Positions 939-39,827 of a stretch of 64,000 bases of DNA are shown here, piece after piece (the stretch's first letter is position 1; every line of letters starts with the position of its first letter). The DNA lies in contig CALAXC010000153.1 of NCBI GenBank assembly GCA_937894775.1, positions 17,802 through 81,801 on the forward strand, written 5' to 3'. The notes under the pieces are model-generated. The model was not told where the DNA came from and did not search any database. It saw only the letters and a program-made list of their open reading frames with translations. The position numbers were made by a program, and so were the translations under genes. Source of the stretch: an uncultured Clostridia bacterium. GTDB lineage: Bacteria > Bacillota > Clostridia > Oscillospirales > CAG-272.

Positions 939-1278
939 TTTTTCCTCCTGATATTTTTTTTAAAAAATTGGGATTTACACTATTGTATCATTTTTTGAGA
1001 TTTTTGTCAATATTTTTGAATTATTTTGATTTCTTTTTCGTGAATCTATCTAATTTGTTGCTTTTGGACTTGGTTGTTTCGCTTATCTTAAAAATCTTTT
1101 TTACTAACGGTGATAAAAATGCAGGTGTACGTAATAATACTATTTTCATAAAAGACCTCCTCAGATTTTGTTTGTTTTTGGATTTCATTACAGTATATGC
1201 AATTTTTTTAAAAGTGACTTATTTTTTTAAAAAGAGAGCCATAATATGTATATGAAAAGAAATTTAACGGAGGGATAT

Positions 1279-2496: not shown

Positions 2497-2519
2497 TTGT
2501 ATCGGTATTAAAGTTTGCA

Positions 2520-4141: not shown

Positions 4142-4158
4142 AGTTTGCCTTTCTTGAG

Positions 4159-5139: not shown

Positions 5140-5194
5140 ATCTCTCTCCGTGATATTTATGAGTAATATGTAGAGAGAATCTGATAAATATATG

Positions 5195-6259: not shown

Positions 6260-6289
6260 AGAGTTATGTCCTCTGAGATTACTTAAAGT

Positions 6290-7573: not shown

Positions 7574-7574
7574 A

Positions 7575-8270
7575 TCAGTTTCTTCTTCCGTTTGAAAGTA
7601 AAAGTAAACGAAGGAGAGTAAGAAGTGAGGTAAGAAGTGCCGCAACGTAGGTCATAGCAGCGGCGGTAAGAACCTTTCGCGACGCACGAAGTTCGCTTTC
7701 GTTAAGAATACCTGTAGATGCAAGAACAGACATAGCTCTTGAGGATGCATCGAATTCCACGGGAAGAGTAACGAGCTGAAAAAGTGCGACTAAAGAATAA
7801 AGGAATATGCCTACGACTGTTAAAGGATAATAAGTAAAAATAAGACCTATAAAAAAGAGAGGCATAGAAAGTGCAGAGCCGATATTGGTTATCGGAACGA
7901 GCTTTGCTCTTATGTTTATAGGGGTATAATTTCTTGCGTGCTGGATCGCGTGTCCTGCTTCGTGCGCCGCAACTCCTATTGCTGCAGGGGATGTGTTGTG
8001 ATATACTGATTCCGAAAGTCTTATAACATTTGCTTTGGGATCGTAATGGTCGGTAAGCTCACCGCGTATTTGAACGACTTGAACGTGTGCAAGTCCGTTA
8101 GCATCAAGTATTCTTCTTGCCGCACCGTATCCCGAAAGACCTTTTACAGTATTCATTTTTGAATACTTTCTGAAGGTCGTGCTGACTTTGATCTGCGCCC
8201 AAAGTGAAATTATAAAACCGGGAATTACAAGCAGAATAGTCCAGTCAAATGCAAATAAACCGAATATCAT
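7575..8270 (-). CDS. Membrane zinc metallopeptidase (YugP / Zn_peptidase_2-like)
   Basis: 231 aa with an N-terminal TM, the 'HEAGHAIQH' zinc motif and C-terminal TM helices. Confidence 0.8.
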   Translation of the reverse strand: MIFGLFAFDWTILLVIPGFIISLWAQIKVSTTFRKYSKMNTVKGLSGYGAARRILDANGLAHVQVVQIRGELTDHYDPKANVIRLSESVYHNTSPAAIGVAAHEAGHAIQHARNYTPINIRAKLVPITNIGSALSMPLFFIGLIFTYYPLTVVGIFLYSLVALFQLVTLPVEFDASSRAMSVLASTGILNESELRASRKVLTAAAMTYVAALLTSLLTLLRLLLLSNGRRN

Positions 8271-15341: not shown

Positions 15342-15824
15342 ATGACACTTAGTGAAAAGGCAGCTTACATTCAGGGACTTGCAGACGGTCTCGATCTTGA
15401 CGAAACAACTAAAGAGGGCAAACTTATAGCAGCTCTTATAGATCTTGTAGGAGAAATGACCGATGCTATAAATGCACTCGAAGAGGATGTTGACACTCTT
15501 AACGATTACATTGAGGAGATTGATGAGGATCTTGGCTCTGTAGAGGAGATCGTTTATGAGGATTGCGGTTGTGATTGTGACGATTGCTGTGACGATGACG
15601 ACTACGATTGTGATGATTTTGATGAGTGCGATGGCAACTGCGATGATTGCGATGAGGATTGCGCGCTTGCAGATGATGAGTATTTTGAGGTAGAGTGTCC
15701 TTCTTGCGGAGAGACTATCTGCTTTGACGGAAGCATTGATCCTGAAGAACTTGCTTGTCCCGCATGCGGAGAAAAGTTTGAGTGCCTCGTATCCGAAGAG
15801 GATCTCAGAGCACTTGATCAGTAA
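15342..15824 (+). CDS. Acidic Cys/Asp-rich zinc-ribbon protein (resembles the family NCBI labels 'CD1247 N-terminal domain-containing protein')
   Basis: 160 aa. Helical N-domain, a 35-aa stretch with 10 Cys and 17 Asp, and a C-terminal CPSCG...CPACG zinc ribbon. Good RBS (AGGAGG) upstream. Confidence 0.55.
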   Translation: MTLSEKAAYIQGLADGLDLDETTKEGKLIAALIDLVGEMTDAINALEEDVDTLNDYIEEIDEDLGSVEEIVYEDCGCDCDDCCDDDDYDCDDFDECDGNCDDCDEDCALADDEYFEVECPSCGETICFDGSIDPEELACPACGEKFECLVSEEDLRALDQ

Positions 15825-21861: not shown

Positions 21862-23556
21862 ATGAAGATGGTACTTAGTTTACTTTCAGTCGCAATACTT
21901 TTGATTGCGATATTTGAAATTATAATGGAAACGGTCAAGGCTGTTAATAAGGGCTTGAAAAAATCCCTTGTTACGTTAGCTTCAATTATGCTTTCTATAT
22001 TTTTGTCCTTGGTATTGACACAACCGGTGTCAAATCTTTTGGTAAACCCGATAGCAAATTTATTGAAAAAGCTTGTGAATCTTTCGGCGCTTGAGAATAC
22101 TGTTCCAAGCTTGCCGTTAGTGATTGGTGCTTATGCTGATGCATTGATATCACCGCTTATATTTTTGATATTATTCTTTTTGATCAGGGCGATAATCGCA
22201 ATCGTTGTTTTGATCGTTATGCGTTCGAGAGAAAAAAAGAAGATCGATACTAATAATTATGAAAACGAGGATGCTCCTGCGTTTAAGAAAAACCCCAAAG
22301 CCGCAAGCGGAGTAGTGGGATTTGTGTGCGGTATTTTGTTGATAACAACTTTTACAGCGCCTATTATGGGAACTCTTAAGGTCGCAGAAAAAACTTTTTC
22401 CGCAGTTAATAATAATTCCGATGTTTACGGAGCTAAGATCAATTCAAAAGCAGTTTCGGTTATCAAGCTTTTTTCAAAGGATATGATAGGAAACGCATTG
22501 TATTATTGCGGTGGAAACCTTATATACAAAGCAAGCGCTACGTCGATGCTTAACGATAATTATTTTCAGCTTGAAAATGAAGCCGTTCAAACGGTAAACA
22601 CGGCAGACGATCTTATGCTTGTTACGAGTATACTTGGAAATATAAATTCTTCAACAGAGGAGCAGAGAAACTCAATGAAGGTTCTCGGCAAGGAAATAAA
22701 TAAAGCAGAAACGCTTAAAACTGTTGCCGCGGATATAGTTCCGGAGCTCTCAAAAAATTGGCTTGACGGAAAACCTTACTTGGGTACTGATAAGCCTAAA
22801 TTCAATAAGATCTCGGAAAGCGTTTTTAATAAAATGCTTTATGTGTGTAAATCGAGTACTGTTGATACTGTAGGTGATGACCTTAATACTCTTTTGAATG
22901 TTTATATGATAGCATATGAGCATGATATGTTGGTTTCGGGAGATTATAAAACGGTAATTGAAACAGCCAGCAGAACCGGTGCTTTTGATCTCATAAGACA
23001 AGAACTGAGTAAAAACAGAAGAATGGCAGGTATTACTTTAGATATCGATACGATGTCGATACGTACAATAGCATCTGCAATTCAGTCCTTTAACTTGGAA
23101 AACTATGATATTCTTATGAATAACATAACTAATACGCTTAACGTTGCGCTCAAATATGAGGGCGAAGCAAGAAAGCAGTATATTACCGATCTTACAAGAC
23201 AGTATATTAATTCTTACGGAATCAATATTGGCGAGGCTGAAACTATTAAGTTGGCTGAAAAACTTAATGATGAAGTTATCGGCAATAGAAAGAGCGTGTC
23301 TATTGACGATGTTAGATCATTCTGGGATAAATATTCTGTGAAGAATAAGGATAATAATACTCAGGTACAGCAAACTCCCGTTATATCTGTACCCGATCAG
23401 ACGGTTGATGATACTGTTGAAGGAGAAACAGATTTGGACACAGAGAATGAAGGCGGAGAAGGTTATCCCGAAAATCCTGAGTCTTATGCGGATGGATATG
23501 TTGAGCCTGAAAACGGGCAGGAAAATATTGAAAACGAGTATAATAGCATCGCATAA
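21862..23556 (+). CDS. Polytopic membrane protein with ~390-aa soluble domain and acidic tail (N-terminal TM bundle weakly CvpA-like)
   Basis: 564 aa. About 5 hydrophobic segments in the first 180 aa. The C-terminal 60 aa is D/E/N/G-rich. Starts 17 nt after the preceding gene, with RBS AGGAG. Confidence 0.6.
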   Translation: MKMVLSLLSVAILLIAIFEIIMETVKAVNKGLKKSLVTLASIMLSIFLSLVLTQPVSNLLVNPIANLLKKLVNLSALENTVPSLPLVIGAYADALISPLIFLILFFLIRAIIAIVVLIVMRSREKKKIDTNNYENEDAPAFKKNPKAASGVVGFVCGILLITTFTAPIMGTLKVAEKTFSAVNNNSDVYGAKINSKAVSVIKLFSKDMIGNALYYCGGNLIYKASATSMLNDNYFQLENEAVQTVNTADDLMLVTSILGNINSSTEEQRNSMKVLGKEINKAETLKTVAADIVPELSKNWLDGKPYLGTDKPKFNKISESVFNKMLYVCKSSTVDTVGDDLNTLLNVYMIAYEHDMLVSGDYKTVIETASRTGAFDLIRQELSKNRRMAGITLDIDTMSIRTIASAIQSFNLENYDILMNNITNTLNVALKYEGEARKQYITDLTRQYINSYGINIGEAETIKLAEKLNDEVIGNRKSVSIDDVRSFWDKYSVKNKDNNTQVQQTPVISVPDQTVDDTVEGETDLDTENEGGEGYPENPESYADGYVEPENGQENIENEYNSIA

Positions 23557-23612
23557 TATTTTAAGCGTTGTAGACCCGAGTAAAAACTGTAAATGAAAAT
23601 GGCAGGTAAGAT

Positions 23613-24308
23613 ATGGAAATAATTATGGCTTATATAGCAAAGGGAATCGTACTTCTAATGAGTATGGTACTGTATGTATACCTCTTTTCAGCGGTAGTCC
23701 CTAAATTTATTATGAAGCTCAGATGCAAAGTAAATACGTGCGACAGAGGTATAAGAAAATATAAATATCCTGATGGAAGATGCGTTGTTTACGAACCTGA
23801 AATTTCTTTAAGAAAATATGTTGAAAGTTATGCACTTTACGTTCGTGACGGATATAAATACATTACTTGTAAGACAACAGAAAATGTAAAAGATATAAGA
23901 TACGAGGTCTATGCTTTTGATATAAACAATAAGCTTATAGACATTTTATCGGTACTTGAAACTGTGAATAACGGTTGCACACAGGAAGTTTCTATCCCCC
24001 CTGAAACATCGTATGTAAGATTGGTGCTCAGACGAGTTGATAATGAGTATTATTCAAGAAAGATAGTGGCAGAATACTCTGTTTTCAGTTATTGTTTGTG
24101 CGCTATAGTAGTTGCTGTAGCAACACTTGTAGAGTCTTTTATCGTTTATTTCTTGGCAAAAGATATTTTGATCAGCGGCTTAAGACTCAGAATGACTCTT
24201 ATAGGAGTCGGCGGTATGTTTTTTATGGCAATTTTGATATCTTTGATAGTAGCGGGACTTACTGTTCTTGCATATCGCAGAAACTGTAAAAAGGTGATAA
24301 ACAAATGA
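23613..24308 (+). CDS. Hypothetical membrane protein
   Basis: 231 aa: an N-terminal TM, a ~120-aa beta-rich domain, then 2-3 C-terminal TMs. Its stop overlaps the next start (ATGA at 24305). Confidence 0.55.
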   Translation: MEIIMAYIAKGIVLLMSMVLYVYLFSAVVPKFIMKLRCKVNTCDRGIRKYKYPDGRCVVYEPEISLRKYVESYALYVRDGYKYITCKTTENVKDIRYEVYAFDINNKLIDILSVLETVNNGCTQEVSIPPETSYVRLVLRRVDNEYYSRKIVAEYSVFSYCLCAIVVAVATLVESFIVYFLAKDILISGLRLRMTLIGVGGMFFMAILISLIVAGLTVLAYRRNCKKVINK

Positions 24309-24952
24309 AAAGAGATTTGCAAATTATATCGAAAGGTCTGTACGATAAACCCAATGAAGATTGTGCACTGATTGCAGCAAAACAGTATATTTTTGCAAGG
24401 CAAAAAGGAAGAAAGATCTTAATTGTAAGATTCGAAAACCTTTCTAACCATAGAATAGAAGATATGTCATTTTGGTTGGTTCAGTTGAATTCTGACGGTG
24501 TTGAGATATCGTCTAAAAAGATAACATTAAAAAGTATCGGCTGTGCACCAAGGGAAATTTTTTCTCCAAATAATTGTTTTTACGTAGATAATAAATGCGT
24601 GGATTTTGAGATCCGAATGATTTCTGTTACTTCGGGCGGCTTTGAATATTTATCAAAAAACGGAGAGGGATTTGTAAAATATCCTCTTGAGGAGAGCTGG
24701 TCATATGCTTCATCGCAAAGTGTTTCGGGATATAAATATTCTAAAATACAAAATAACAGAGTTAAATTTTCAAAAGCAATTTTGATATTGGCATTGTTTT
24801 TAATCGCTCTTGCGGTTATTTGGCCATTCTTTGCAAATACGTTGTGTCCCGCAATTGCAGATGTTCTGGATAGATTTTGGAAAATGGTTGCTGAGGATAC
24901 GAAGGAACTTTTCAGACGTATTGCAGAGTCATTCGAGAAGAAGAATGTTTAA
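24305..24952 (+). CDS. Hypothetical protein with C-terminal TM anchor
   Basis: 215 aa with a soluble ~155-aa domain, then the TM 'AILILALFLIALAVIWPFF'. AAGGTG RBS. Translationally coupled to the previous ORF. Confidence 0.55.
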   Translation: MKRDLQIISKGLYDKPNEDCALIAAKQYIFARQKGRKILIVRFENLSNHRIEDMSFWLVQLNSDGVEISSKKITLKSIGCAPREIFSPNNCFYVDNKCVDFEIRMISVTSGGFEYLSKNGEGFVKYPLEESWSYASSQSVSGYKYSKIQNNRVKFSKAILILALFLIALAVIWPFFANTLCPAIADVLDRFWKMVAEDTKELFRRIAESFEKKNV

Positions 24953-24972
24953 ATTATCAGTAGGAGAATGAT

Positions 24973-27900
24973 ATGTTAAAACATAAATTTATAGTTGATA
25001 AGCTTAGCGAAGCGCAAAAGATAACGCTTTTGTCTGACGTGAGAGTGCTTTCGACTGCGGAATATACTAAGTTTGGTATTCCAATGCTCAGTATTGAATC
25101 GATATACGGATATAAAACTGATGTTTATCCAAGTCCGATAAGTCTTGCGAATTCTTGGAATGAGAGAATAGTTGGCGAGGTCGCAAGTGATATCGCAGTT
25201 TCTATGTCCGCAGAACAAATAAATGTAGCGGGAATACTCAGCCCTATTCCAAAACTTAATATGACAGATAGAGCGATTTCGGAAGATCCGCTTCTTTCGG
25301 CAAAGATCTCATCTGCGTATATGGGCTCTATAGGAAAGACGGGAATAGCGGTAACACTTGATGATATTTTCTTTGATGAGCAGGATGTTTCTTGCTTGGA
25401 TCATACGCCAAACAGTAGATTTTTAAATGAATTTGTTTACAGAGCGGTATCTAATACAGTTGAAAATAAAAAATGTCATGCTGTAACGGTTGGAGCAGAT
25501 ATAGATATAAAAGGCTACGAAAATATAAACAGTGAGATCACCGAGAGAGTCGCAACTATCGGCGGTGAAAAATTCGTTTTGTGTAAGAATATCGCACCGG
25601 AAGATACGGTTATAAGAATCGTAAAGGGGCAGATATGCTTAGACGGCTGTGAGCCTGTTCTCAAAGCGGCTATCGATAGATATGCACGTTTGAAAGAGGG
25701 AATAAAGCGAGGCAGAGTTACGGTATGCGAGCTTGAAGCTGAGATAGAAAACGGAAGCGCTTTCCCACCTGAAAAGATAGATGAGGCGGTAGACAAGGTT
25801 ATAGATTTTGCTTTTGAAATGACAAATGCGAATAAAGGTAAGCTTGCTTCCTATACCCCTACTTCAACAGTGGTGAAAAATGCTGCTTATGAATCAACGG
25901 TCCTTTTGAAAAACTATAAAACAGTTTTGCCGTTAAAGCCGGGTACTCTTGTAACTTTGGCAGGAGATATATTGGTGAATTATAACGGAGAAGACGCGGA
26001 TTATTCGGATAAAGCAAATGAAGCTGCATATTATCTCAGAGGTCTTGGCTGTGCTTCTCAAGGATTTGTCCGTGCATATTCTATGGCAGAAGACAGAAGC
26101 GATAAGCTTTTTATGCAAATGGAAGGATCTGCGCTGAACACCGATACGGTAATTCTCTTTATGGGAACTAATCCCCAAAAAGAGAAGGCAATTACCAGAA
26201 CCGAGAATCTGTATCTCCCCGCAAATCAGCTTGCTGCCTTGGAGAAGCTTTATAAGATGGGTAAAAAGATAATCGCTGTAGTGTCAAGCGATTATGCAAT
26301 AGATGTTACTTTTGCAGACAAGGTTGACGCACTTTTGGTAGCTCCGTTGAATACAAAATATGGCGTTGAAGCGGTATTCGATATCATTACAGGCAGAATG
26401 GGCCCGGTAGGACGACTTGCGACAACTTGGTATAAAAATACAGATAGGGCAAATAAAAAACATAGATTTTATTGTTCAATGCCAAACTCAAAGGTCGGCA
26501 CTTATTTGGGTTACAGATATTATGATAAATCCGATTATGATGTGGGTTATCCTTTCGGATACGGATTGGCATTTTCAACCTTTGTTTATTCAAAGCTTTC
26601 GGTTCAGGGAACTAACGTTGTTTTCACCGTAAAGAATAAAGCTAAGGTTGCGGGAACCGAAGTAGTCCAAGTTTATTTAGGTATTAATAATTCAGCAATT
26701 CAACGACCTAAAAAGGAGCTTGTCGGATTTGAAAAGATATATCTTCAGCCGGGAGCTTCGACAACAGTTTCGATTCCTATGTCGAATATAGAAAGCTTTG
26801 ATCCCGAAAGTAAACGGTGGATTATGGAGCGTGGCGAATACACAGTATATGTAGGCTCTTCGGTTAAAGATATAAAGCTTACAGCGAAGGTGTCGCTTGG
26901 ACAGGATATTGTGAATTCTCCTGCGGAAGATCCGTCCGATTATTTACAGTCGGAAAGTAATATTATTTCAAACAGATACACATTGGAGGCAGATTATAAG
27001 CTTATGAAAAGGAATATTAGAAATATAGTATTTGGTATAGGCGCCCTTGTTTTGGCGGTGGCTATGTTTGTCTTCTCGATATTTTCGGGAAAGGTAAGTA
27101 TTTTCTTAAACGTTGTTGCGTCTATATTGGCTTTGGCGGGAGTGGTGTTCTTTATTTTGGAAGGTACTGACCGTAAAAAAGCGCATAACGAAGAAAGAAA
27201 CCGTGTAAATGAAGCGAATAAGGCTCATTTTGAAAATGCAACGGATATTGCAGATTTCTCTACAAATGCCGTATTTAGCGAGGAATTCGACAGAGTCGAG
27301 CAGAAGATATCTTTCACAAAAGATACGGCTCCCTCAAAGGCAGAAAGCTATCTTGCTTTTGTAAATGAGAGTCTTACATATGATGCAGCAATTTCTCAGT
27401 TTATTGCGTTTGCCGCTGCTAAAGGTTTTAAGTTTAATGAAAGCAACGCACGCGAGCTTTTTGCAGCTATGTCTGCATCAAGACTTATCATCACAAAGGG
27501 AATGTCTAATGACGTATTTGCCGAGCTTGTAAGAGTAGTAAGCGAATATTTTGGAACTCCTATGTTTGTGGATGCGGTTGATTATTCTTATGAAAATGAT
27601 AATTCCGCACTCTTTAAGGGGGTAGGTGCTGCAAAGCAGAGAACAAATCTCACCAATGCTATTTATGCGGCAATTGAAAGCTCCGATAAGGTTCATATTG
27701 CAGCGCTTACAGATGTTAATTTTGCAGATCTTTCAAAGTATTTTGTTCCGTTTGCAAGATATATTCGTAATCCACGTAATGCAAACATTATTTCTACGGT
27801 CGATCAGACAGGTGAAAAGACTCAGATCACGATGCCACAGAATATGTGGTTTATGCTTAATTTGAGAATGGGCGAGACCATGAGTAATATACCTGAATAT

Positions 27901-28350
27901 ATCACTGAGCTTGCTTCGGTTATAAAGGTGGATTATATAAGAACTGCTCCTACAATGCTTTATACGCAGATTGTTCCGTTTAGTTATTATCAGTTTGATT
28001 TCTTGCTTGATAAGGTGAAAACAAGATTTATTATTTCTGAGGATACTTGGAAGAAGTTTGACCGTTTTGAAGCTTTTGTAAACGGTGTTTCTCCATATGC
28101 TCTTGAAAATAGAGTATGTATAGCCGTTGAGAGATTTTTTGCAGTATTCTGTGCCGCAGGCGGAGATACGAATGAGGCGATCGACAGAGCTATCAGTGCA
28201 AGAATACTTTCTTCGGTGATTATAACGCTTAATAATGCCGAGGACAAGGAAAATAGAAATCTTACCGAAAAGCTTGAGATGATATTCGGCGAAGAAAACA
28301 TAGATGTTTGCCGAGCTTTCATCAGAGCGGCAGGATCAAATCTTATCTGA
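24973..28350 (+). CDS. Fusion protein: GH3-like domains (N-domain, alpha/beta sandwich, Fn3-like), a 2-TM hairpin, and a degenerate McrB-like AAA+ domain
   Basis: 1125 aa. GH3-type blocks: 'KLSEAQKITLLS', 'GIPMLS', 'ISEDPLL', 'STVLLKNYKTVLPL', 'GPVGRLATTWY', 'GYRYYDKSDYDVGYPFGYGLAFSTF', 'EVVQVYLG'. TMs at about nt 27024-27165. The C-terminal ~390 aa aligns colinearly with the neighbouring ATPases but has destroyed NTP motifs (see findings). Confidence 0.75.
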   Translation: MLKHKFIVDKLSEAQKITLLSDVRVLSTAEYTKFGIPMLSIESIYGYKTDVYPSPISLANSWNERIVGEVASDIAVSMSAEQINVAGILSPIPKLNMTDRAISEDPLLSAKISSAYMGSIGKTGIAVTLDDIFFDEQDVSCLDHTPNSRFLNEFVYRAVSNTVENKKCHAVTVGADIDIKGYENINSEITERVATIGGEKFVLCKNIAPEDTVIRIVKGQICLDGCEPVLKAAIDRYARLKEGIKRGRVTVCELEAEIENGSAFPPEKIDEAVDKVIDFAFEMTNANKGKLASYTPTSTVVKNAAYESTVLLKNYKTVLPLKPGTLVTLAGDILVNYNGEDADYSDKANEAAYYLRGLGCASQGFVRAYSMAEDRSDKLFMQMEGSALNTDTVILFMGTNPQKEKAITRTENLYLPANQLAALEKLYKMGKKIIAVVSSDYAIDVTFADKVDALLVAPLNTKYGVEAVFDIITGRMGPVGRLATTWYKNTDRANKKHRFYCSMPNSKVGTYLGYRYYDKSDYDVGYPFGYGLAFSTFVYSKLSVQGTNVVFTVKNKAKVAGTEVVQVYLGINNSAIQRPKKELVGFEKIYLQPGASTTVSIPMSNIESFDPESKRWIMERGEYTVYVGSSVKDIKLTAKVSLGQDIVNSPAEDPSDYLQSESNIISNRYTLEADYKLMKRNIRNIVFGIGALVLAVAMFVFSIFSGKVSIFLNVVASILALAGVVFFILEGTDRKKAHNEERNRVNEANKAHFENATDIADFSTNAVFSEEFDRVEQKISFTKDTAPSKAESYLAFVNESLTYDAAISQFIAFAAAKGFKFNESNARELFAAMSASRLIITKGMSNDVFAELVRVVSEYFGTPMFVDAVDYSYENDNSALFKGVGAAKQRTNLTNAIYAAIESSDKVHIAALTDVNFADLSKYFVPFARYIRNPRNANIISTVDQTGEKTQITMPQNMWFMLNLRMGETMSNIPEYITELASVIKVDYIRTAPTMLYTQIVPFSYYQFDFLLDKVKTRFIISEDTWKKFDRFEAFVNGVSPYALENRVCIAVERFFAVFCAAGGDTNEAIDRAISARILSSVIITLNNAEDKENRNLTEKLEMIFGEENIDVCRAFIRAAGSNLI

Positions 28351-28377
28351 AAATAACGGATTAAGGAGAACAAGTAA

Positions 28378-29703
28378 ATGTTAGAATTAGCTCGCTGTTT
28401 TGGAGGAAAGGCATTAGCATTTGATAAAGAAGCTATGCTTGATATGTTTACCTCTGAAATTGCAATAATCATATATATTTTTATTATTCTTGCGATAGTT
28501 GCGGTTCTTGTTGTAGCGCTTATTTTCTTCCAGCGCAAAGATGAATCGGATGAGGAAAATATTGCACCTGACAATGCGGGTGCTCAAGCTCCAAACGATG
28601 ATGAGGTCGAGAAGGAAGAAACCACCGAGCGTTTTTGTATGTTGAGTGCGATCGACAGAAGAAGAAACAGCTATGGACACGTGAAGTACGCAACAAACGT
28701 AACGCTTGAAGATTTCTGTGAGAATTTCAGGAATTATGCGGCATACAGACACGGATTATACTATGATATAGAAGATATAAGAAGATTCATAGCAGGAATG
28801 TCAGTGTCACATATGCTTATATTACAGGGTATGTCGGGAACAGGTAAAACCTCGTTGGCACACGCGATAGGATCATTTGTTGATAATAGCTCAACGATAA
28901 TTCCCGTGCAGCCAATGTGGAAGGAAAGAACCGACCTTATAGGTTATTATAACGAATTTACAAGAAGATTTAACGAGACATTATTGCTTACAAAGATGTA
29001 TGAGGCAAATTATAGCAAAGACGTCTATGTAACGGTTCTCGATGAAATGAATATTGCAAGAGTAGAGTATTATTTTGCTGAATTTTTGTCTTTGCTCGAG
29101 CTTCCGAATCCTGAGGAAAGATACCTCGATGTAGTATCGGACAAATGGGAAAACGATCCCACTCAGCTCAAAGACGGAAGAATAAAGCTTCCTACAAATA
29201 TGTGGTTTGTGGGAACGGCAAATAATGACGACTCAACATTCCTTATATCGGATAAGGTTTATGACCGAGCAATGATACTTGACCTCGATCAGAAAACCGA
29301 AAGATTCGTAGCGCCGCCAACCGAAAAGATGATAATATCTGCAGAACAGTTCGACGCACTTGTAGTATCTGCGCAGAAGGAATATGAGATAAGCAGCCGA
29401 AACAAGAAGAGACTTGAAGCGTTCGATGAATATCTTATAGCGCATTTCCACGTAACGTTCGGAAACCGAATTATGAAGCAGATATTGACATATATCCCCG
29501 TATATATAGCATGCGGCGGAGAAGAGCTTTTTGCGCTTGACGATATACTTTCAAAGAAGGTAATAAGAAAGCTCGAATCACAGAATCCTATATACTTCAA
29601 GAATGCGGCAGACGGATTGATCGCGTATATGGACGATCTTTTTGGCGCAGAAAATATGACTCTCTGCAAGGAGCATATAAGAAGAATTTTGAGAAATGCT
29701 TAA
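28378..29703 (+). CDS. Membrane-anchored McrB-like AAA+ NTPase, copy A
   Basis: 441 aa. One TM (IAIIIYIFIILAIVAVLVVALIFF) and an acidic linker. Walker A 'GMSGTGKT' (28828-28851), Walker B 'VLDEMN' (29035-29052), and 'GTANNDDS' (NxxD-type, 29221-29232). 'PVQPMWKERTDLIGYY' and 'EYYFAEFLSLLE' parallel the McrB blocks 'QFHPSYSYEDFVEGY' and 'IFGELMMLIE' (from memory). Confidence 0.75.
   Translation: MLELARCFGGKALAFDKEAMLDMFTSEIAIIIYIFIILAIVAVLVVALIFFQRKDESDEENIAPDNAGAQAPNDDEVEKEETTERFCMLSAIDRRRNSYGHVKYATNVTLEDFCENFRNYAAYRHGLYYDIEDIRRFIAGMSVSHMLILQGMSGTGKTSLAHAIGSFVDNSSTIIPVQPMWKERTDLIGYYNEFTRRFNETLLLTKMYEANYSKDVYVTVLDEMNIARVEYYFAEFLSLLELPNPEERYLDVVSDKWENDPTQLKDGRIKLPTNMWFVGTANNDDSTFLISDKVYDRAMILDLDQKTERFVAPPTEKMIISAEQFDALVVSAQKEYEISSRNKKRLEAFDEYLIAHFHVTFGNRIMKQILTYIPVYIACGGEELFALDDILSKKVIRKLESQNPIYFKNAADGLIAYMDDLFGAENMTLCKEHIRRILRNA
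28624..29703 (+). repeat. 1080-bp direct repeat, copy 1 (ATPase core)
   Basis: Matches 31736-32815 at a constant offset of 3112 nt. Every stretch I compared by eye was identical. The + frame and two minus-frame track ORFs (29233-29451 = 32345-32563; 29289-29669 = 32401-32781) translate identically. Flanks diverge immediately (c vs t upstream; ttttta vs aaaaaa downstream). Confidence 0.9.
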
Positions 29704-29736
29704 TTTTTAAGATAAATTTTACAAAGGAAAATTTGT

Positions 29737-31428
29737 ATGAATCAATTGGATGTTTATTACAGAGCCCAGCTTGATTATAAAAATGCGATAGAGTCCGATA
29801 AAGAGTGCTCGAAATTAAACTCTGCGTTCCTTTCAGCTGATGCAGAAAGCGACCGTTTGGTAATAACAAGAGCGTTTTGCACGGTTGATGAAGAATGGGT
29901 TGCCGAGATAGAAAAGGGCTTGGTTTTTATAGAAAAAGCTATAAAAGAAGACCGTCAGTTTATTCTTTCTCAAGGCGAGGTAGTTCCGATAGAAAAGGTT
30001 AAGTCTGTGTCAAAGGAATCGGTGCAGCATCTTGCAAAGCACAGTGATCTTATAACCGAGTATGAAGAGGGAGAGGATATTATTCCCGATAAGCTTTATA
30101 CGGTTGAGAGATTAAACGATTATACCGTTTATGAGAACAGATTCCTTTATATGTTGCTTTGCTATCTTCGAGATTTTGTTTCGCTAAGATATACGAAGAT
30201 CGTTGAAGCAACAAATAAATATGATGCCAAGCTTTCGATCAACAAAGATTTTATGATTGGTAAGGAAACTATCTCTTATACCGTAAATATACATGACGTA
30301 AGACAGGATGATGAATATCTTAAGGAGCACAATACCGCAAAGGATATCATCGATAGAATAATGCTTATTCTTAAAGCGATACTTGCATTTTTGGCGACAC
30401 CTCTTATGGAATATCAGGCAAAAGTCCCAATGATAAAACCCCCTATAACCAAGACTAATGTTCTTAAAATGAATAATAATTTCAAGGGCGCAGTAGCACT
30501 TTATGATTATATTATTTCTTATGATAAACAAGGCTTTGAAATCGAAAATCAGGTCACAAATATATCTCCGTTTACAATCGAGATGGGCTCTGATTTTGCT
30601 TTGGCAGGTGGAATGATGACGTTTCTTTCTTATCAGTATGGTTTAGGACTTAAGAGTGAGCTTAAGGCTTCCTACGATAAAGAAGAAGAACGTCGCAAGG
30701 ATGAGCTTGTAAAGCGAAACAGAGAGCTTATTGCAGCGCTTGATAAGAGACTTCAAAGATCTGAGATAACTCATAGCGAATACATAATCAAGCTCGAAGA
30801 ACAGATAAAGCTCCTTGAAAAGCAGTGTGAACGTTTAGAGTTTATGCGCAAAGAGGTCGAGCGTCTTAAAACAAGTGAAAATAAGCTTTTGGCGGATATA
30901 AAGATATCTTATCTTGAAATATCTAAGCTCAAGAGTGATATGCTTTCTAAAGAACATGAGCATGCAGAGGCGGTCGAGCGCGTTCAAAGAGAGTGCTCCA
31001 ACAAAATGCTCGAAATGTCGCAGGCATTTAATCAGGAGAAGATAGAGGCTACCGCTTCGCTTGTGGCAGAGGTAAGCGGCTTGCAAAACAGAGTTGCTGA
31101 GTTGATTGAAAGCAACAGGGTTGAACGTGAGGAATCCAAGAAGGAACTTAATGCACTTCAGGAAGAATATGATAAGCTGATGCAGGATTTCAACGAGCTT
31201 CAGGAAACGAAACGTCTTATAAACGCAAGGCTCAGATCCTATCTTTTTAAGAACGGTGAAGTTCCCGCAGGTGAGGATAACACCGATAAAGAGAAATTTG
31301 ATGAACTTGAAAATGAACTTGAGGTATTTATTAAGTTCTATAAAAAAGAATGGAATAAAACCAAAAAGCGTATACGTAAGGAGCTTTTGAATATCAAAAA
31401 TATCAGAAAGCAGGATGAGCAGGAATGA
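29737..31428 (+). CDS. McrC-N-terminal-like (DUF2357-like) protein with ~200-aa C-terminal coiled coil; no nuclease motif seen
   Basis: 563 aa. 'YTVYENRFLYMLLCYL' resembles the ENR(F/L) block of McrC-family N-domains (recalled, not searched). Residues ~310-500 are heptad-like and E/K/L/Q-rich. It lies between the two McrB-like genes. Confidence 0.5.
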   Translation: MNQLDVYYRAQLDYKNAIESDKECSKLNSAFLSADAESDRLVITRAFCTVDEEWVAEIEKGLVFIEKAIKEDRQFILSQGEVVPIEKVKSVSKESVQHLAKHSDLITEYEEGEDIIPDKLYTVERLNDYTVYENRFLYMLLCYLRDFVSLRYTKIVEATNKYDAKLSINKDFMIGKETISYTVNIHDVRQDDEYLKEHNTAKDIIDRIMLILKAILAFLATPLMEYQAKVPMIKPPITKTNVLKMNNNFKGAVALYDYIISYDKQGFEIENQVTNISPFTIEMGSDFALAGGMMTFLSYQYGLGLKSELKASYDKEEERRKDELVKRNRELIAALDKRLQRSEITHSEYIIKLEEQIKLLEKQCERLEFMRKEVERLKTSENKLLADIKISYLEISKLKSDMLSKEHEHAEAVERVQRECSNKMLEMSQAFNQEKIEATASLVAEVSGLQNRVAELIESNRVEREESKKELNALQEEYDKLMQDFNELQETKRLINARLRSYLFKNGEVPAGEDNTDKEKFDELENELEVFIKFYKKEWNKTKKRIRKELLNIKNIRKQDEQE

Positions 31429-31444
31429 TGCTTGGGTGGAATAG

Positions 31445-32815
31445 ATGACGAAAAATGTTAAAAGAAATATAAAAAGAGTTATTTTACTTATCGTTTCTCT
31501 TGCGCTTGAGGGAATACTCGCATTTATGCTTATAGGCGGTATTGCAAATCACGGGCTTGCAGAATCTAAAGTAATAACGCTTATAATAATTCTTATGCTT
31601 ATGATACCGCTTGCTTTGTTGGCACTTTTGTTTGTTGTTTCTTTTAGAAAAAAGCAACAAGCAAAAGTATCCAAAAGGCAAGAGACCGATAAAAAAACGG
31701 GTAAGAAGAAAAAGAAAAACGAAGATAACGGTGATACCGAGCGTTTTTGTATGTTGAGTGCGATCGACAGAAGAAGAAACAGCTATGGACACGTGAAGTA
31801 CGCAACAAACGTAACGCTTGAAGATTTCTGTGAGAATTTCAGGAATTATGCGGCATACAGACACGGATTATACTATGATATAGAAGATATAAGAAGATTC
31901 ATAGCAGGAATGTCAGTGTCACATATGCTTATATTACAGGGTATGTCGGGAACAGGTAAAACCTCGTTGGCACACGCGATAGGATCATTTGTTGATAATA
32001 GCTCAACGATAATTCCCGTGCAGCCAATGTGGAAGGAAAGAACCGACCTTATAGGTTATTATAACGAATTTACAAGAAGATTTAACGAGACATTATTGCT
32101 TACAAAGATGTATGAGGCAAATTATAGCAAAGACGTCTATGTAACGGTTCTCGATGAAATGAATATTGCAAGAGTAGAGTATTATTTTGCTGAATTTTTG
32201 TCTTTGCTCGAGCTTCCGAATCCTGAGGAAAGATACCTCGATGTAGTATCGGACAAATGGGAAAACGATCCCACTCAGCTCAAAGACGGAAGAATAAAGC
32301 TTCCTACAAATATGTGGTTTGTGGGAACGGCAAATAATGACGACTCAACATTCCTTATATCGGATAAGGTTTATGACCGAGCAATGATACTTGACCTCGA
32401 TCAGAAAACCGAAAGATTCGTAGCGCCGCCAACCGAAAAGATGATAATATCTGCAGAACAGTTCGACGCACTTGTAGTATCTGCGCAGAAGGAATATGAG
32501 ATAAGCAGCCGAAACAAGAAGAGACTTGAAGCGTTCGATGAATATCTTATAGCGCATTTCCACGTAACGTTCGGAAACCGAATTATGAAGCAGATATTGA
32601 CATATATCCCCGTATATATAGCATGCGGCGGAGAAGAGCTTTTTGCGCTTGACGATATACTTTCAAAGAAGGTAATAAGAAAGCTCGAATCACAGAATCC
32701 TATATACTTCAAGAATGCGGCAGACGGATTGATCGCGTATATGGACGATCTTTTTGGCGCAGAAAATATGACTCTCTGCAAGGAGCATATAAGAAGAATT
32801 TTGAGAAATGCTTAA
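31445..32815 (+). CDS. Membrane-anchored McrB-like AAA+ NTPase, copy B
   Basis: 456 aa with a 2-TM hairpin N-terminus and a Lys-rich linker. From 'TERFCMLSAIDRR' to the C-terminus the protein is identical to copy A (359 aa). Confidence 0.75.
   Translation: MTKNVKRNIKRVILLIVSLALEGILAFMLIGGIANHGLAESKVITLIIILMLMIPLALLALLFVVSFRKKQQAKVSKRQETDKKTGKKKKKNEDNGDTERFCMLSAIDRRRNSYGHVKYATNVTLEDFCENFRNYAAYRHGLYYDIEDIRRFIAGMSVSHMLILQGMSGTGKTSLAHAIGSFVDNSSTIIPVQPMWKERTDLIGYYNEFTRRFNETLLLTKMYEANYSKDVYVTVLDEMNIARVEYYFAEFLSLLELPNPEERYLDVVSDKWENDPTQLKDGRIKLPTNMWFVGTANNDDSTFLISDKVYDRAMILDLDQKTERFVAPPTEKMIISAEQFDALVVSAQKEYEISSRNKKRLEAFDEYLIAHFHVTFGNRIMKQILTYIPVYIACGGEELFALDDILSKKVIRKLESQNPIYFKNAADGLIAYMDDLFGAENMTLCKEHIRRILRNA
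31736..32815 (+). repeat. 1080-bp direct repeat, copy 2 (ATPase core)
   Basis: See copy 1. Confidence 0.9.
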
Positions 32816-32842
32816 AAAAATAAAGATTTGAGATTATAGATT

Positions 32843-34738
32843 ATGTTTAAAGATAGTAAATATGTAAAGTTAATATGCATAGTCTTGGTTTTTTCTGCTT
32901 TGGCGTTGGCACTTTCGATGGGGATTTTAGCTATCAGCGCTTTGCGGAATGAAACTTTTGCTGATCCGCTTGACGGTTATCAGGAAAACCTCGAGAAAGA
33001 AACGGTGACCCTTCCGCCTCCTGTTCCCCCTGACGGACCCGATCCTGACGACGATCCGGACGGAGATAATACAAGCCCGTATCAAGTGTATTCCGATCAA
33101 GCTGTAGATGCTCTCTATTTGAGGGGGGAGGCTTTTGGAAATTATAACGGAAAAGGATGGGATGAGGCAGTTCCGTATACAAATTTGATAGATGATAAAT
33201 ATCCTGCAACCTATCTTGGAAGTTTGATGATAGAAGAGTGGAGCCGAGCTTGGGGCATGTCTCCGATAGCTCTTTCTATAAAGCCGAATGATGCTGAAAT
33301 GATCATACCTTCCTATACGGCAACATCGGAATATGTTGCAGATCTTATGGGAACAACGGATTATAAAGAAGAGTATTTAATTCCGGAAGATGATGTTACG
33401 GCAAATCCAAAGAGCTCAGAAATTTACCGTATGCATTATTATAATTACACAAATGTCAGCAAGAAAAAGGAAACTCCTACCACTTATGCACTCTATGAAA
33501 GGGTATACCGCGACTTTGTATATGACCATTATCTTTATGTAGATGATACAACAAAGTCCTATATGCTTGATATTATAGATAAGCAAAAGTTTGATTTTTA
33601 TGATCAGAATGTTGCTCAGAATATTTCGGATTATGTTTCCGGATTAGGCGAATATCTCATTACTTATGATCAAGCCCTTGATCAAGAGGAAAATATGGTT
33701 ATTGCCTTTATTGAAAAATATAAAGCAGGAACGTGTAAGCATTTTGCAAGTACTGCCACACTTATTTTCAGATCAATGGGAATTCCCGCAAGATATGTTA
33801 CGGGATATATGACAGCAACAGAAGCGGGAGAATGGGTGCAGCTCGATAATTTCAATTCACACGCTTGGGTAGAAATATATGTTGACGGCTTTGGCTGGAA
33901 AACGGTAGAGGTAACACCCGCACAGCAAAAAGATCCTATAGAGATAAAGCCTGTTGATGTTAAGAAAAAATTTGACGGAACTCCGATTTTCCCTGAATAT
34001 AAGATAGAAGGCTTTGAAGAGTACGAAAAGCTTGGATATACTTATGAGGTGGTTATAAGCGGAGAACGTACCGAACCGGGTGTGTCTGAAAGTATTATTG
34101 AAGATATAAAGATATTCGATTCCAATAAAACTGAAGTAACAGATAATTTTCTATTTGAAAAAAAGCCGGGAAAAATTATTGTTCTTGTTAGCGGAGTTGT
34201 TTTGAGGAGCGAGTCGATATCTCAGGTATATGACGGAATTCCGAGGACTTCGGATCTTTCAAAATGCAGTATAGATTTTGAAGATGGTGCAAAGCTTTTG
34301 GAAGGACATACTATCAGAATGGAAGCGAGATTACTTGAGACTAAGATAGGTGTTCATTCGCATGCATTTGATGTTATTGTGGAAGACAGTGAAGGTAATA
34401 ATGTTACGGATGTGTATCTTTTCTCGTATGATTTAGGTAAATATGAAATATCTCCGATATCTATAACCATTAAAGCGGGAAGCGCTGAACAAGAATATCT
34501 TCCTGGAAAGATACTTACTTGTGATCAGTATGAAATAACATCAGGAAAGCTTATGGAAGGTGATTATATTCCCGATGATATAGTTATTACCAAAGGAGAG
34601 CAAAAGGTACCGGGAAGAAGTCCTAACACAATAGATCGTAGTAAAATAGTTATTTTAAATTCCGAGGGTGAAGATGTTTCGTCTAACTATGTAATTCGTA
34701 CAGAGGTTGGAGAGTTACGTCTTTATGAAAGTGAATAA
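32843..34738 (+). CDS. N-terminally anchored transglutaminase-core protein with C-terminal YDG-type repeats
   Basis: 631 aa. Signal-anchor 'LICIVLVFSALALALSMGILAI' and a Pro/Asp-rich linker. TGase core 'GTCKHFASTATLIFRSMGIPARYVTGY...HAWVEIYVDGFGWKTVEVTP'. The C-terminal ~260 aa holds repeats containing 'YDG' and 'EGH'. Confidence 0.75.
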   Translation: MFKDSKYVKLICIVLVFSALALALSMGILAISALRNETFADPLDGYQENLEKETVTLPPPVPPDGPDPDDDPDGDNTSPYQVYSDQAVDALYLRGEAFGNYNGKGWDEAVPYTNLIDDKYPATYLGSLMIEEWSRAWGMSPIALSIKPNDAEMIIPSYTATSEYVADLMGTTDYKEEYLIPEDDVTANPKSSEIYRMHYYNYTNVSKKKETPTTYALYERVYRDFVYDHYLYVDDTTKSYMLDIIDKQKFDFYDQNVAQNISDYVSGLGEYLITYDQALDQEENMVIAFIEKYKAGTCKHFASTATLIFRSMGIPARYVTGYMTATEAGEWVQLDNFNSHAWVEIYVDGFGWKTVEVTPAQQKDPIEIKPVDVKKKFDGTPIFPEYKIEGFEEYEKLGYTYEVVISGERTEPGVSESIIEDIKIFDSNKTEVTDNFLFEKKPGKIIVLVSGVVLRSESISQVYDGIPRTSDLSKCSIDFEDGAKLLEGHTIRMEARLLETKIGVHSHAFDVIVEDSEGNNVTDVYLFSYDLGKYEISPISITIKAGSAEQEYLPGKILTCDQYEITSGKLMEGDYIPDDIVITKGEQKVPGRSPNTIDRSKIVILNSEGEDVSSNYVIRTEVGELRLYESE

Positions 34739-34756
34739 TAAGTAAAGGGTGGTATA

Positions 34757-37700
34757 ATGTTATACGATAGCTACCATAAAAAAATATCGAAGGTCGTTGA
34801 TGTTTTACGCAAGGTATTTAAGCACATAGTCCTGATCAGCATTGTTTTAGGACTTTTGCTTGCGTTTCTCATTACTTTTATGGTTACAAAGGGAATGATT
34901 ATTGACGATAAAAATGTGTCTAATAAATTCGCTGTAACTTACGGAGAAGACCTTCCATTGAAGACGAGCGCTATGTTCGCTTCACATAAATATCAATATT
35001 CCGAAAACGGAAGAAAATGGAGCGATGCTTTTCCGTCAGAACCGGGAACATACCGGGTCAGGGCAGTTGCTAAAGGAATATTCGGAAATGAGAGATACGG
35101 AAAGATCTATACTTTTGTTTTAAAAGCAAAGGAAATTGATGTTTCTGTAGTCGAAGATGAAATTATATATGGAGAACTTCCAACGGTTGAAGCTAAGCTT
35201 TCTTATGAAGATACTATCAGCTGTGACGGTTTTGTTTATGAAGACCGCTTTTCGGCAAGCACTAAGGTAACTCCGAATGCAGAGGACATTACGATTCTTA
35301 ATAAAGACGGTGAAGATGTTACCTCTTCTTATGAGATAAACGTTGAAAGTACCGACATCAACGTGCTTCAAAGAGAAATTCTGGTTACTGTATCCGATCA
35401 GTCAATGATATATAATGATGTAAAGTTTAGTTATGACGGATACGAATTAAGTAACGGAACTTTAGCCGACGGTGATACTATTCAGGCGGTATTTGATAAG
35501 TATCTTATAGATGTAGGTGAGATCGAGAATACCCCCCAGCTTAAGGTCGTTACATCAGACGGTTTTGATATTTCAATGCATTATTCTATCCAAACACAGA
35601 TAGGTAAGCTTAAAGTTGACTACCGTCCGTTGATAATTAAAACGCCAAGTGCTGAAAAGGTATATGATGCAAACGCTCTTTCAAATTCCGAGTACGAGAT
35701 AGTAGGGGAATACGGTCTTGTTGAAGGACATACGATGATCTGTATTTCCAACACTTCTATAACGGACGTTGATGAGGTTGAGAACGTTCTTGATTTTGAG
35801 ATCAAGAATGCGGCAGGAGAAGATAAGACTCCTAACTATTCTTTCTTCTATGAAAGAGGAATGCTTAAAGTAACCGAAAGACCTCTTAATGTTTCGTTTG
35901 TGAGTGGAACTTGGATGTATGATAACAAGTGGCATAAGGGTGAAATAAAGCTTGAAGGCCTTTGCGAAGGACATAAAGCGACTTATGATATACCGAGTAT
36001 AATCGATACAGGTAAGATAGAAAACTCTACCGAGATAACCGAGATTTATGATGCTCACGGAAAAGATGTTTTCTTGAATTATGATATCATTTACGGTGAT
36101 TTCGGTACTCTTGAAGTTACAAAACGTCCGATAACTATTACTACTGAGAGTCAGACTTTGACTTATGACGGTGTTATCAGAGTTTTTGATAAGTATGAAA
36201 TTACATCTGAAATAAAGCTTGCTGACGGTGAAGAGCTTCAGCTTACCTTTAACGAGTTCTACAAGGCAGGAACTTATGACAATAATATTGTTTCTGCTAT
36301 GATAAACTACAGCCGAACAGGTACAGGCGTTCCGGATGAAAACGGTTGGTATCAGGTAGGCAGCAGTGGAGTTGCCGATGCTGCTCAAAACTATGAGATA
36401 ACTGAGGTAATAGGAAAGATAATTATTAATAAGTGTCCGATTACTTTGCGTCCTGTTGATATAGCGCATGTGTATGACGGTACGTTGATTGTTCCTACTG
36501 AATTCGATATCGTTTCGGGAGAGCTTCCTCCAAGTCATACTATATATCCCGAGTATATAGGTTCACTTACCGATGCGGGAGAAATAGATACGGATATAGA
36601 TCTTACAAAGACTATAGTTAAAGTGCTTCGTGATGACGGTTCGGAAGAAGATGCTACCGAGAACTTTGAGATCACAGTTCAAAAGGGTAAGATCACTATC
36701 AGTAAAAGACAGATCACCGTTAGAACCGAAACAGTTGAAAAGATATACGATGGAACTCCGTTATCAAGTAATAATTGGGAGATCGTAAGCGAAACACAGC
36801 TTGTTGAAACTCATACGCTTAATCTTGAATGTAATGTTTCAAGAATTTATCCAGGTGAAAGTGATAATCTTGTAGATCTTGATTCTGTCACGATCGTTGA
36901 TGAAAATGAAAATGACGTTCTTAAGAATTATGAGATAACTTACGAGTACGGTAAGCTTATAGTACATAAGCGACCGATAACTATTGTTGCTTCAAGTGCG
37001 AGAAAGACCTATGATGGAACACCTCTTGTTTCTACAGAATATTCTATCTTGGATGCTGATTTAGAGGATTACGGATTATTGGAAGGTCATACCCTCAAGG
37101 CAACGACAAGCGGTTCTATAACCAACAAGGGTGAGACCTCAAATAAGATCGATATCGATAAAGTGAGAATACGTAATGCTTCAAATAAAAACGAAACAGA
37201 GTATTATGAAATTACTTGTTCTGACGGAACACTTACTATTGATCCGATAATTGTCAATATCACTACTTCGTCTGTAAATAAAATCTATGACGGTACCTCT
37301 ATAAATCCTAAGATCGATACCGTAGTCGATTCGGATATCGAAGAGAAAATCATTGCGGGACACACTTATTCGATCACAGTAGCGGATAAGGAGCTTATAA
37401 ATGTAAAAGATTCTCCGCTGGAAAATGAAGCGATTTTGGTAGTTTACGATGAAAAAGGTGCAGATATGACTGCACTTGGAAATTATGAGGTAAACGGAAC
37501 TTGGGGAAGTATTATTATTCTTCCCAGAGTTATTAAAATACTTCCTAAACCATCAGTAACGAGTAAGGTTTATGACGGAAATCCGTTGACTTGTACCGAT
37601 TATGAGGATATTTCAAATGCTGAATTAAACGAAGGACTCCTCAGCAATCATTTGCTGGAGCAAATAGAATTTAATTCTCAAACAGATGCAACTGATTTCT

Positions 37701-39784: not shown

Positions 39785-39791
39785 AATAAAA

Positions 39792-39827
39792 AGCTATCAC
39801 AAATGAAAATTTGTGATAGCTTTTTTG
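39792..39827. terminator. Bidirectional hairpin terminator closing the operon
   Basis: AGCTATCACAAAT-gaaa-ATTTGTGATAGCT perfect 13-bp stem, flanked by an A-run upstream and a T6 run downstream. It sits between convergent genes. Confidence 0.8.

Follow-up and report, generated by a model that had tools for sequence, protein, structure and literature searches.

What could an McrC-like subunit be doing in a locus that encodes no nuclease? The question is raised by a 64,000-nucleotide (nt) stretch of contig CALAXC010000153.1 from an uncultured Clostridia bacterium (the whole stretch is called the window here). A gene of 563 amino acids (aa) with an ATG start (29737..31428, + strand; hereafter the candidate) begins 33 nt after a gene for an McrB-like nucleoside triphosphatase (NTPase; 28378..29703) and ends 16 nt before a second copy of this NTPase (31445..32815). 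An original prediction, made from the sequence alone, had placed this open reading frame (ORF) at the McrC position and described it as an McrC-N-like domain followed by about 200 aa of coiled coil, with no nuclease. The ORF lies where it was said to lie and translates as quoted, with the quoted strings at aa 118-148, 240-259 and 350-384. Here, we found that the candidate combines a domain homologous to the DUF2357 (McrC-N-like) family with a coiled coil and a conserved basic C-terminal helix, that it adjoins NTPases of the NxD type with intact motifs, and that it belongs to a conserved operon without a nuclease. We read the system as a nuclease-free, membrane-tethered variant of McrBC that was not previously described. 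We give about even chances to the candidate being an McrC-derived subunit that kept the DUF2357 domain only and that serves an envelope-linked chromosomal role rather than restriction.

The relation to McrC lies in the N-terminal globular domain (aa 1-303; 29737..30645), which the AlphaFold models and the alignment depict as a helical bundle with beta elements. Scanned on their own, aa 1-321 match the Pfam family PF09823 (DUF2357) with E=4e-6 and 26.6 bits, for a gathering cut-off of 23.3; the match covers aa 57-162 (29905..30222) and positions 91-194 of the 251 in the profile. The same family is matched by 32 of 79 diverse members of the candidate's family (best E=3e-9), and no other family recurs among the 79, where the sporadic matches are to coiled-coil families. 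Searching plasmids and phages with the N-terminal domain gave only remote matches. The three weak ones found by tblastn, on a plasmid, a cyanobacterial plasmid and a phage-labelled contig, are all in the gene directly 3' of an AAA_5 ATPase of ~790-820 aa with a long N-terminal coiled coil, and these are CnuB/CnuC-like pairs. When the family alignment was compared by hhalign with the proteins of these three genes, which match DUF2357 in Pfam or have the same motifs, the probabilities were 92.3, 95.6 and 95.2%, with E-values of 6e-7 to 1e-8 and 176-221 aligned columns. PIEKVK..HLAKHS, YENR and TNVL are part of the aligned stretch, as are both blocks that had been predicted to resemble McrC or DUF2357. 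On these profile comparisons, the homology of the N-terminal domain to the DUF2357 family is well supported.

The conservation of this domain is high. The mean column identity is 76% among 15 sequences that are 62-81% identical to the query, and 12 columns are invariant and 37 nearly invariant among 79 sequences that are only 29-50% identical to it. The putative stalk (aa 71-126; 29947..30114), delimited from conserved columns and AlphaFold models, has invariant Q74, I76, L99 and P117, and R73, G80, I85, E86, K87, S92, H102 and S103 are conserved in at least 90% of the sequences. Its PIEKVK..HLAKHS block is common to the candidate and the CnuC-like proteins. In both models, which show a helical bundle and a low-confidence extension, the stalk is the part with the lowest confidence.

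The remainder of the protein is mostly helical. In the AlphaFold2 model of the full-length candidate, built from the 79-sequence alignment (mean predicted local distance difference test, pLDDT, of 86), the N-terminal domain extends to aa 303 and is followed by long helices at aa 306-340, 346-505 and 518-549. The first two form the predicted coiled-coil region (aa 306-505; 30652..31251), and the 160-residue helix at 346-505 would span ~24 nm. The hydrophobic residues of this helix have a periodicity of 3.5 residues (z=3.5) that was attained by 2 of 500 shuffled sequences. A cruder heptad score of the tail is consistent with this, and the median z of the family tails is 2.9 (n=144). The tail of the candidate is rich in E (17.7%), K (12.8%) and L (11.9%), with a single proline in 243 residues. 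The coiled coil of about 200 aa that had been predicted is thus supported by both the model and the periodicity. Its length is variable in the family, whose tails have 31-1,013 residues (median 284) and diverge fast in sequence. Y349 and E354, which form a junction motif, are conserved. The Lys/Arg-rich C-terminal helix (aa 518-549; 31288..31383), identified from the alignment and the AlphaFold2 model, is also conserved, with F521, L524, E525, W539, K543 and I546 present in at least 90% of the sequences.

We searched for a nuclease at several levels. Scans with Pfam, NCBIfam and PADLOC revealed none in the candidate, be it the whole protein or either half alone; the whole protein gave nothing or coiled-coil noise, and no Pfam family at E<0.01. 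None was found in the 78 relatives scanned, nor in the unusually long relatives, which have no other enzymatic domain either, and the same three collections revealed none across the nine genes of the operon. Among the invariant columns of the family alignment there is no conserved D...(D/E)xK. A cryptic PD-(D/E)xK site at IIPDKLY was considered and rejected, since it lies inside the DUF2357 match and lacks the ExK spacing. No helicase gene was found in the operon with Pfam. Hence, the original prediction was right that the protein shows no nuclease signature, and the two findings that could have overturned it did not appear: its N-terminal 300 aa do match DUF2357, and we found no cryptic nuclease or other effector domain.

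The genes on both sides of the candidate encode membrane-anchored McrB-like NTPases on the same strand. Both are AAA_5 proteins. Copy 1 (441 aa; 28378..29703) has a hydrophobic helix at aa 28-50, and copy 2 (456 aa; 31445..32815) has the same core after two hydrophobic helices within aa 12-66. The Walker A (GMSGTGKT), Walker B (LDEMN) and signature (GTANNDD) motifs of copy 1 correspond to GxSGTGKT, LDExN and GTANNDD, which are invariant in 63 homologs of the NTPase. In 64 of 65 homologs, the sequence before Walker A includes a hydrophobic segment. No reader of modified DNA was found on the NTPase, whose N-termini consist of membrane anchors and a charged linker. Its only sequence matches in the PDB are to McrB, with 20% identity to the E. 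coli protein, and two coiled-coil McrB-like ATPases from CoCoNuT-like loci share 40% (E=2e-61) and 38% (E=7e-55) identity with its core, so the neighbor had been correctly named as an McrB relative. The branch of McrB-like GTPases that holds CoCoNuT and CoCoPALM is defined by a signature in which an E or a D comes after NxD (Bell et al. 2024, PMC11090510). GTANNDD fits this pattern, since it can be aligned gap-free with the GTANHDE, GTANTDE and GTANQDE of coiled-coil McrB-like proteins, and on this alignment we place the NTPase in the NxD branch. Reading NNDD as a canonical NxxD motif, which aligns equally free of gaps with the NTAD of E. coli, was dropped once NHDE, NTDE and NQDE had been aligned. 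The NTPase core also matches the PADLOC model PDC-M26A (E~1e-45; best stretch at positions 311-430 of 724 in the profile), the only PDC-M26 model to be matched, while the candidate matches no PADLOC model. We found no literature on PDC-M26.

The two NTPase genes have a peculiar mode of evolution. They share a direct repeat of 1,080 nt on the + strand (28624..29703 and 31736..32815) that is 100% identical between the copies and ends at their stop codons, whereas the 5' parts encoding the anchors are unrelated. We rejected the possibility that the duplication is an assembly artefact because 24 further loci, taken from different assemblies, have the same arrangement. In 20 of these 24 loci with both copies, the pairs could be compared base by base: the cores within a locus have 92-100% nucleotide identity, with at least 98.3% in 18 of the 20, yet protein identity between genomes goes down to 64%. 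This pattern indicates recurrent, long-term gene conversion, i.e., concerted evolution of the cores. The near-identical repeats break assemblies, which accounts for the many metagenomic contigs bearing the candidate that are only 2.0-2.5 kb long.

The family is large and its genetic context is stable. A phmmer search with the N-terminal domain against 1.84 billion representatives gave 1,237 clusters (defined at 50% identity), of which 332 have E<1e-30. The domain is N-terminal in almost all of the 150 matches listed, whose lengths are typically 520-760 aa. In a collection of species-representative genomes we confirmed 236 matches and kept 80 loci for analysis. Almost all of these are labelled as Clostridia (Eubacteriales, Christensenellaceae, Oscillospiraceae and Candidatus Scatosoma), and they come from metagenome-assembled genomes of the gut or from isolates, including Anaerocaecibacter muris. 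Nearly all long loci have the same order of six core genes: a GH3-like protein with an inactivated McrB-like domain, NTPase, candidate, NTPase and two transglutaminase-like proteins. The rates of evolution differ markedly between these genes, as illustrated by one locus (L003) whose identity to the window is 91% for the NTPase core, which is thus as conserved as the adjacent MutS2 (89%), 83% for the N-terminal domain of the candidate, 60% for its tail and 43-45% for the transglutaminase-like proteins. Public records label the proteins of the operon as "hypothetical protein" or "AAA family ATPase." A scan of IMG/VR revealed no relatives. In the course of this work, we also came across an apparently complete, unannotated operon of the CoCoNuT type at 34-7599 of a human faecal sequence labelled "Bacteriophage sp." (MT835511.1). 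It comprises an SF1 helicase-like ORF, a 535-aa ORF, a coiled-coil McrB-like ATPase of 824 aa (GTANQDE) and a DUF2357 protein of 689 aa with Cys-rich, zinc-ribbon-like motifs at its C terminus.

The context of the candidate is also richer than had been predicted: its McrC-like position stands, to which we add the second ATPase copy, the inactivated McrB-like domain and the conserved operon. This operon consists of nine genes on the same strand (21862..39784) with gaps of -4 to 56 nt. It likely ends at a terminator-like hairpin with a 17-bp stem (39788..39825, + strand), 4 nt after the last gene. Its first three genes, co-oriented and tightly packed with the others (21862..24952), encode membrane proteins of 564, 231 and 215 aa. 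Their sole match, sub-threshold, is of the 564-aa protein to a CvpA/Colicin_V-like family, and they are syntenic only in the nearer half of the relatives. In A. muris (312-5348 of locus L082), their place directly 5' of the next gene is taken by a 1,678-aa leucine-rich-repeat (BspA-like) protein. The surrounding genes are housekeeping ones (EF-P, NusG, L1, RNase Y, MutS2-like, GlnRS and GluRS). Just after EF-P, and unrelated to the operon, a protein of 160 aa (15342-15824; CGCDCDDCCDDDDYDCDD...) is highly acidic and Cys/Asp-rich, with a C-terminal CxxC..CxxC motif resembling a zinc ribbon.

The gene preceding NTPase copy 1 encodes a protein of 1,125 aa (24973..28350, + strand) with GH3-like and Fn3-like parts, a hydrophobic hairpin (aa 685-729) and, in the last ~315 aa (27412..28326), an McrB-like domain related to the neighboring NTPase (BLASTP E=3e-19). 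All three catalytic motifs of this domain are replaced: Walker A reads GMSNDVFA, Walker B LTDVN and the signature RMGE. The hairpin recurs in 27 of the 28 orthologues, the exception being that of A. muris, and no signal peptide was found in the protein; from these two features, the GH3-like part is probably cytoplasmic. The N-terminal catalytic domain of GH3 gave no more than a weak match that fell short of the cut-off (PF00933, E=0.008), so this part may have no glycosidase activity and serve as a sensor. Downstream of NTPase copy 2, two genes on the + strand encode transglutaminase-core proteins with an N-terminal membrane anchor, one of 631 aa (32843..34738) and a large one of 1,675 aa with repeated domains (34757..39784). 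They are repeat-rich and the fastest-evolving genes of the operon. Both keep the Cys (GTCKHFA and GVCTHYA) and the His (HAWVE) of the catalytic triad, and both read E-V-T-P at the position where most members of the transglutaminase-core family have D-P-T.

How could such a system work? In McrBC, the stalk of the N-terminal domain of McrC enters the pore of the McrB hexamer and stimulates hydrolysis (Nirwan 2019, PMC6624300; Niu 2020, PMC7680126). By analogy with this mechanism, we propose that the two membrane-anchored NTPase isoforms would assemble into a hexameric ring on the inner side of the membrane, possibly joined by the catalytically dead domain of the GH3-like protein. Such a ring may be mixed, which could be the reason why the NTPase cores are kept identical. 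The candidate would insert its stalk (aa 71-126) into the pore and stimulate nucleotide hydrolysis; the combination of high conservation and low model confidence in the stalk would be expected if this segment folds on binding. The coiled coil could stand in for the nuclease dimer of McrC by pairing two subunits and thereby bridging two rings. Alternatively, it may reach ~24 nm into the cytoplasm, where the C-terminal helix would hold a partner. Since the operon encodes no nuclease, the machine would act mechanically or as a regulator. We regard an envelope-linked, chromosomal role coupled to the co-transcribed transglutaminase-like surface proteins, and not restriction, as the most likely one. 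More specifically, an McrBC-type motor may have been domesticated in hundreds of species of gut Clostridia as a nuclease-free, membrane-tethered GTPase machine with a housekeeping function in the envelope, such as the assembly, anchoring or remodelling of these surface proteins. This machine would comprise two NTPase isoforms that differ in their anchor but share the core, a catalytically dead paralogue fused to a cytoplasmic GH3-like sensor, and a plug made of the McrC-N domain and the coiled coil. This more specific scenario is tentative, and we put it at a little less than even.

Several observations weigh against our main reading of an McrC-derived subunit with an envelope-linked role. The Pfam match to DUF2357 is modest, restricted to aa 57-162, and lost once the coiled coil is included in the search. 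The comparison of the family with E. coli McrC by hhalign was negative (0.1% probability), this protein being filed in Pfam under PF10117 and not PF09823. Foldseek searches of the PDB with the model of the N-terminal domain (pLDDT 72) and of the full-length protein (86) gave no match at E<0.01 or even at E<0.1, to a solved McrC or to anything else. The link of the candidate to McrC is thus a matter of sequence profiles and not of a structural match to a solved McrC. Conserved gene order is the one functional link seen between the motor and the transglutaminase-like proteins. Both subunits have defence systems as their closest identifiable relatives (CoCoNuT-like loci and PDC-M26A), and the fast evolution of the surface proteins, which are 43-45% identical where the motor is 91% identical, would fit a conflict system too. 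One alternative is that the likeness to DUF2357 is spurious and that the candidate is a generic coiled-coil scaffold, of a cytoskeletal or division type, that happens to lie beside AAA+ genes. The lack of an McrC match in the Foldseek searches of the PDB and of BFVD (the latter with the full-length model and without any hit at E<0.01), the chance matches that were all the N-terminal domain gave in PDB sequence searches (as a single sequence or as a profile), and the empty Pfam scan of the whole protein are in line with this. We nevertheless consider it very unlikely, because three independent hhalign alignments of 176-221 columns, at 92-96% probability, lead to DUF2357 proteins encoded after McrB-like ATPases, DUF2357 is the sole Pfam family that recurs (in 32 of the 79 members), and the gene order with the McrB-like genes is invariant. 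Even less probable, to the point that we give it hardly any weight, is that the locus is a decaying, nonfunctional remnant of an McrBC or CoCoNuT system. The missing nuclease and the McrB-like domain without catalytic motifs are what decay could leave behind, but the ORFs are intact in all loci examined, the 12 invariant and 37 nearly invariant columns of the N-terminal domain persist throughout the 79 sequences, the motifs of the NTPase do not vary, and synteny is conserved in a family of 1,237 clusters at 50% identity.

A more serious alternative, though in our view the less likely one, is that the same machine belongs to the CoCoNuT/CoCoPALM branch in function too and acts against phages, possibly by abortive infection. 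The membrane-anchored GTPase ring and the coiled-coil McrC-like subunit would then sense infection at the envelope. Its effector would be non-nucleolytic, e.g., the transglutaminase-like (papain-fold) proteins or membrane disruption. The relatives of the core subunits speak for it, since both are most similar to CnuB/CnuC-like pairs (from the plasmid, the cyanobacterial plasmid and the phage-labelled contig), as do the NTPase signature with NxD and then D, typical of the NxD branch, the PDC-M26A match, the existence of CoCoPALM as a membrane-linked coiled-coil derivative of McrBC, and the divergence of the surface proteins. Yet, when McrC lacks its nuclease, a nuclease is always encoded nearby (Bell et al.), and none was detected in this operon. 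Helicase, methyltransferase and mobile-element genes are also absent from it, its gene order is highly conserved (236 genome matches) around a slowly evolving motor, it has no relatives in IMG/VR, and its flanks are housekeeping genes. The lack of nuclease and helicase, a gene order that is stable over hundreds of species, the slow motor, the absence of signs of mobile elements and the absence from viral contigs lead us to place the housekeeping function in the envelope somewhat higher than defence. Departures of the McrB family from restriction have a precedent, since PcdA of Staphylococcus aureus is an McrB-family protein that was exapted to the selection of the division plane (bioRxiv 10.1101/2023.09.03.556088). 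A non-nuclease finger in the ring also has one: NorD provides it to a MoxR ring, and NorQ/NorD is a protein remodeller.

These results have implications for both possible functions. McrBC is the textbook GTP-driven restriction motor, and its known derivatives either still have a nuclease at the end (CoCoNuT) or no longer possess the McrC partner at all (PcdA). Here, the pair of motor and activator is kept with intact motifs, without a nuclease, bound to the membrane and in the company of surface transglutaminase-like proteins, in a stable chromosomal operon, wholly unannotated, that no fewer than 236 genome records of gut Clostridia contain. If this is a defence system, it would give the McrBC family an effector logic that needs no nuclease. 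If it has a housekeeping function, it would be a second, more complete case of exaptation of a restriction system. The existence of a cultured carrier, A. muris (CLA-AA-M11), makes the question experimentally tractable. Finally, the NTPase pair offers a clean case from nature of paralogous subunits held identical by gene conversion even as their anchors drift apart.

How does the system compare with those already known? It shares with canonical McrBC (E. coli; PDB 6HZ4 and 6UT6) the order of McrB and then McrC, the McrB-type AAA+ motifs and a partner that carries the N-terminal domain family of McrC. It differs from it by the lack of a PD-(D/E)xK nuclease and of a DNA reader, and by an identity of just 20% to E. 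coli McrB. Having neither nuclease nor reader domain, it is not a canonical McrBC. PcdA is a precedent for an McrB-family protein that left restriction for a cell-biological role, but its Walker motifs are degraded, EVE domains are still present in it and it lacks an McrC-NTD partner, whereas here the motifs are intact and the partner is retained. The MoxR-class pairs NorQ/NorD and CbbQ/CbbO offer a parallel to the proposed machine, as an AAA+ ring of the same helix-2-insert clade is plugged by a finger of the partner and serves to remodel proteins, not to cut nucleic acids. They differ in having a VWA partner unrelated to DUF2357, ATPases of the AAA_3/CbbQ type and no coiled coil. Triads of MoxR, DUF58 and transglutaminase-like genes may link such rings to membrane transglutaminase-like proteins. 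We found no literature linking McrB or DUF2357 to transglutaminases.

The closest systems are in the branch of the NTPases. The CnuB/CnuC pair of CoCoNuTs has an NTPase core 38-40% identical to this one, with the same NxD+(D/E) signature, and the DUF2357 domain of the candidate aligns to the CnuC-like partners. In some CoCoNuT types the McrC homolog is also without a nuclease, and a gene for one, be it HEPN or another kind, is then always found in the vicinity (Bell et al. 2024, PMC11090510). In contrast, the operon of the candidate has no HEPN or other nuclease, no UPF1-like helicase and no RNA-binding domains. Its coiled coil follows DUF2357, in the place of the nuclease, while the GTPase is membrane-anchored instead of fused to a coiled coil. 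There are two GTPase genes and a dead third domain in a chromosomal, highly syntenic operon. Lacking a nuclease, a helicase and a coiled coil on the GTPase, the system is not a CoCoNuT.

The original prediction held that coiled-coil derivatives of McrBC are not membrane-anchored. This was incomplete, since the CoCoPALM GTPase has a transmembrane segment, being fused to an FtsB-like transmembrane and coiled-coil domain (Bell et al. 2024, PMC11090510). The details of CoCoPALM were deferred to a later paper (Bell et al. 2024, eLife 13:RP94800), and we found none of them in the CoCoNuT paper and its supplements, nor any transglutaminase or GH3. Some differences are nonetheless apparent. The N-terminus of the GTPase is here a bare anchor with a charged linker, with no Pfam match to FtsB/DivIC in seven NTPase N-termini or in the two full-length copies of the window, a result at the sensitivity of Pfam. 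The signal-peptidase-family (pilus assembly) protein of CoCoPALM was not detected in the operon, none of whose proteins matches peptidases S24/S26 in Pfam. The partners are instead transglutaminase-like proteins and the fusion of GH3-like and dead McrB-like domains, neither of which that paper mentions. The likenesses are an NxD McrB-like GTPase with a transmembrane segment, an McrC homolog with a coiled coil and an association with genes for surface structures, not for enzymes acting on nucleic acids. Hence, CoCoPALM is the closest named kind to the system described here.

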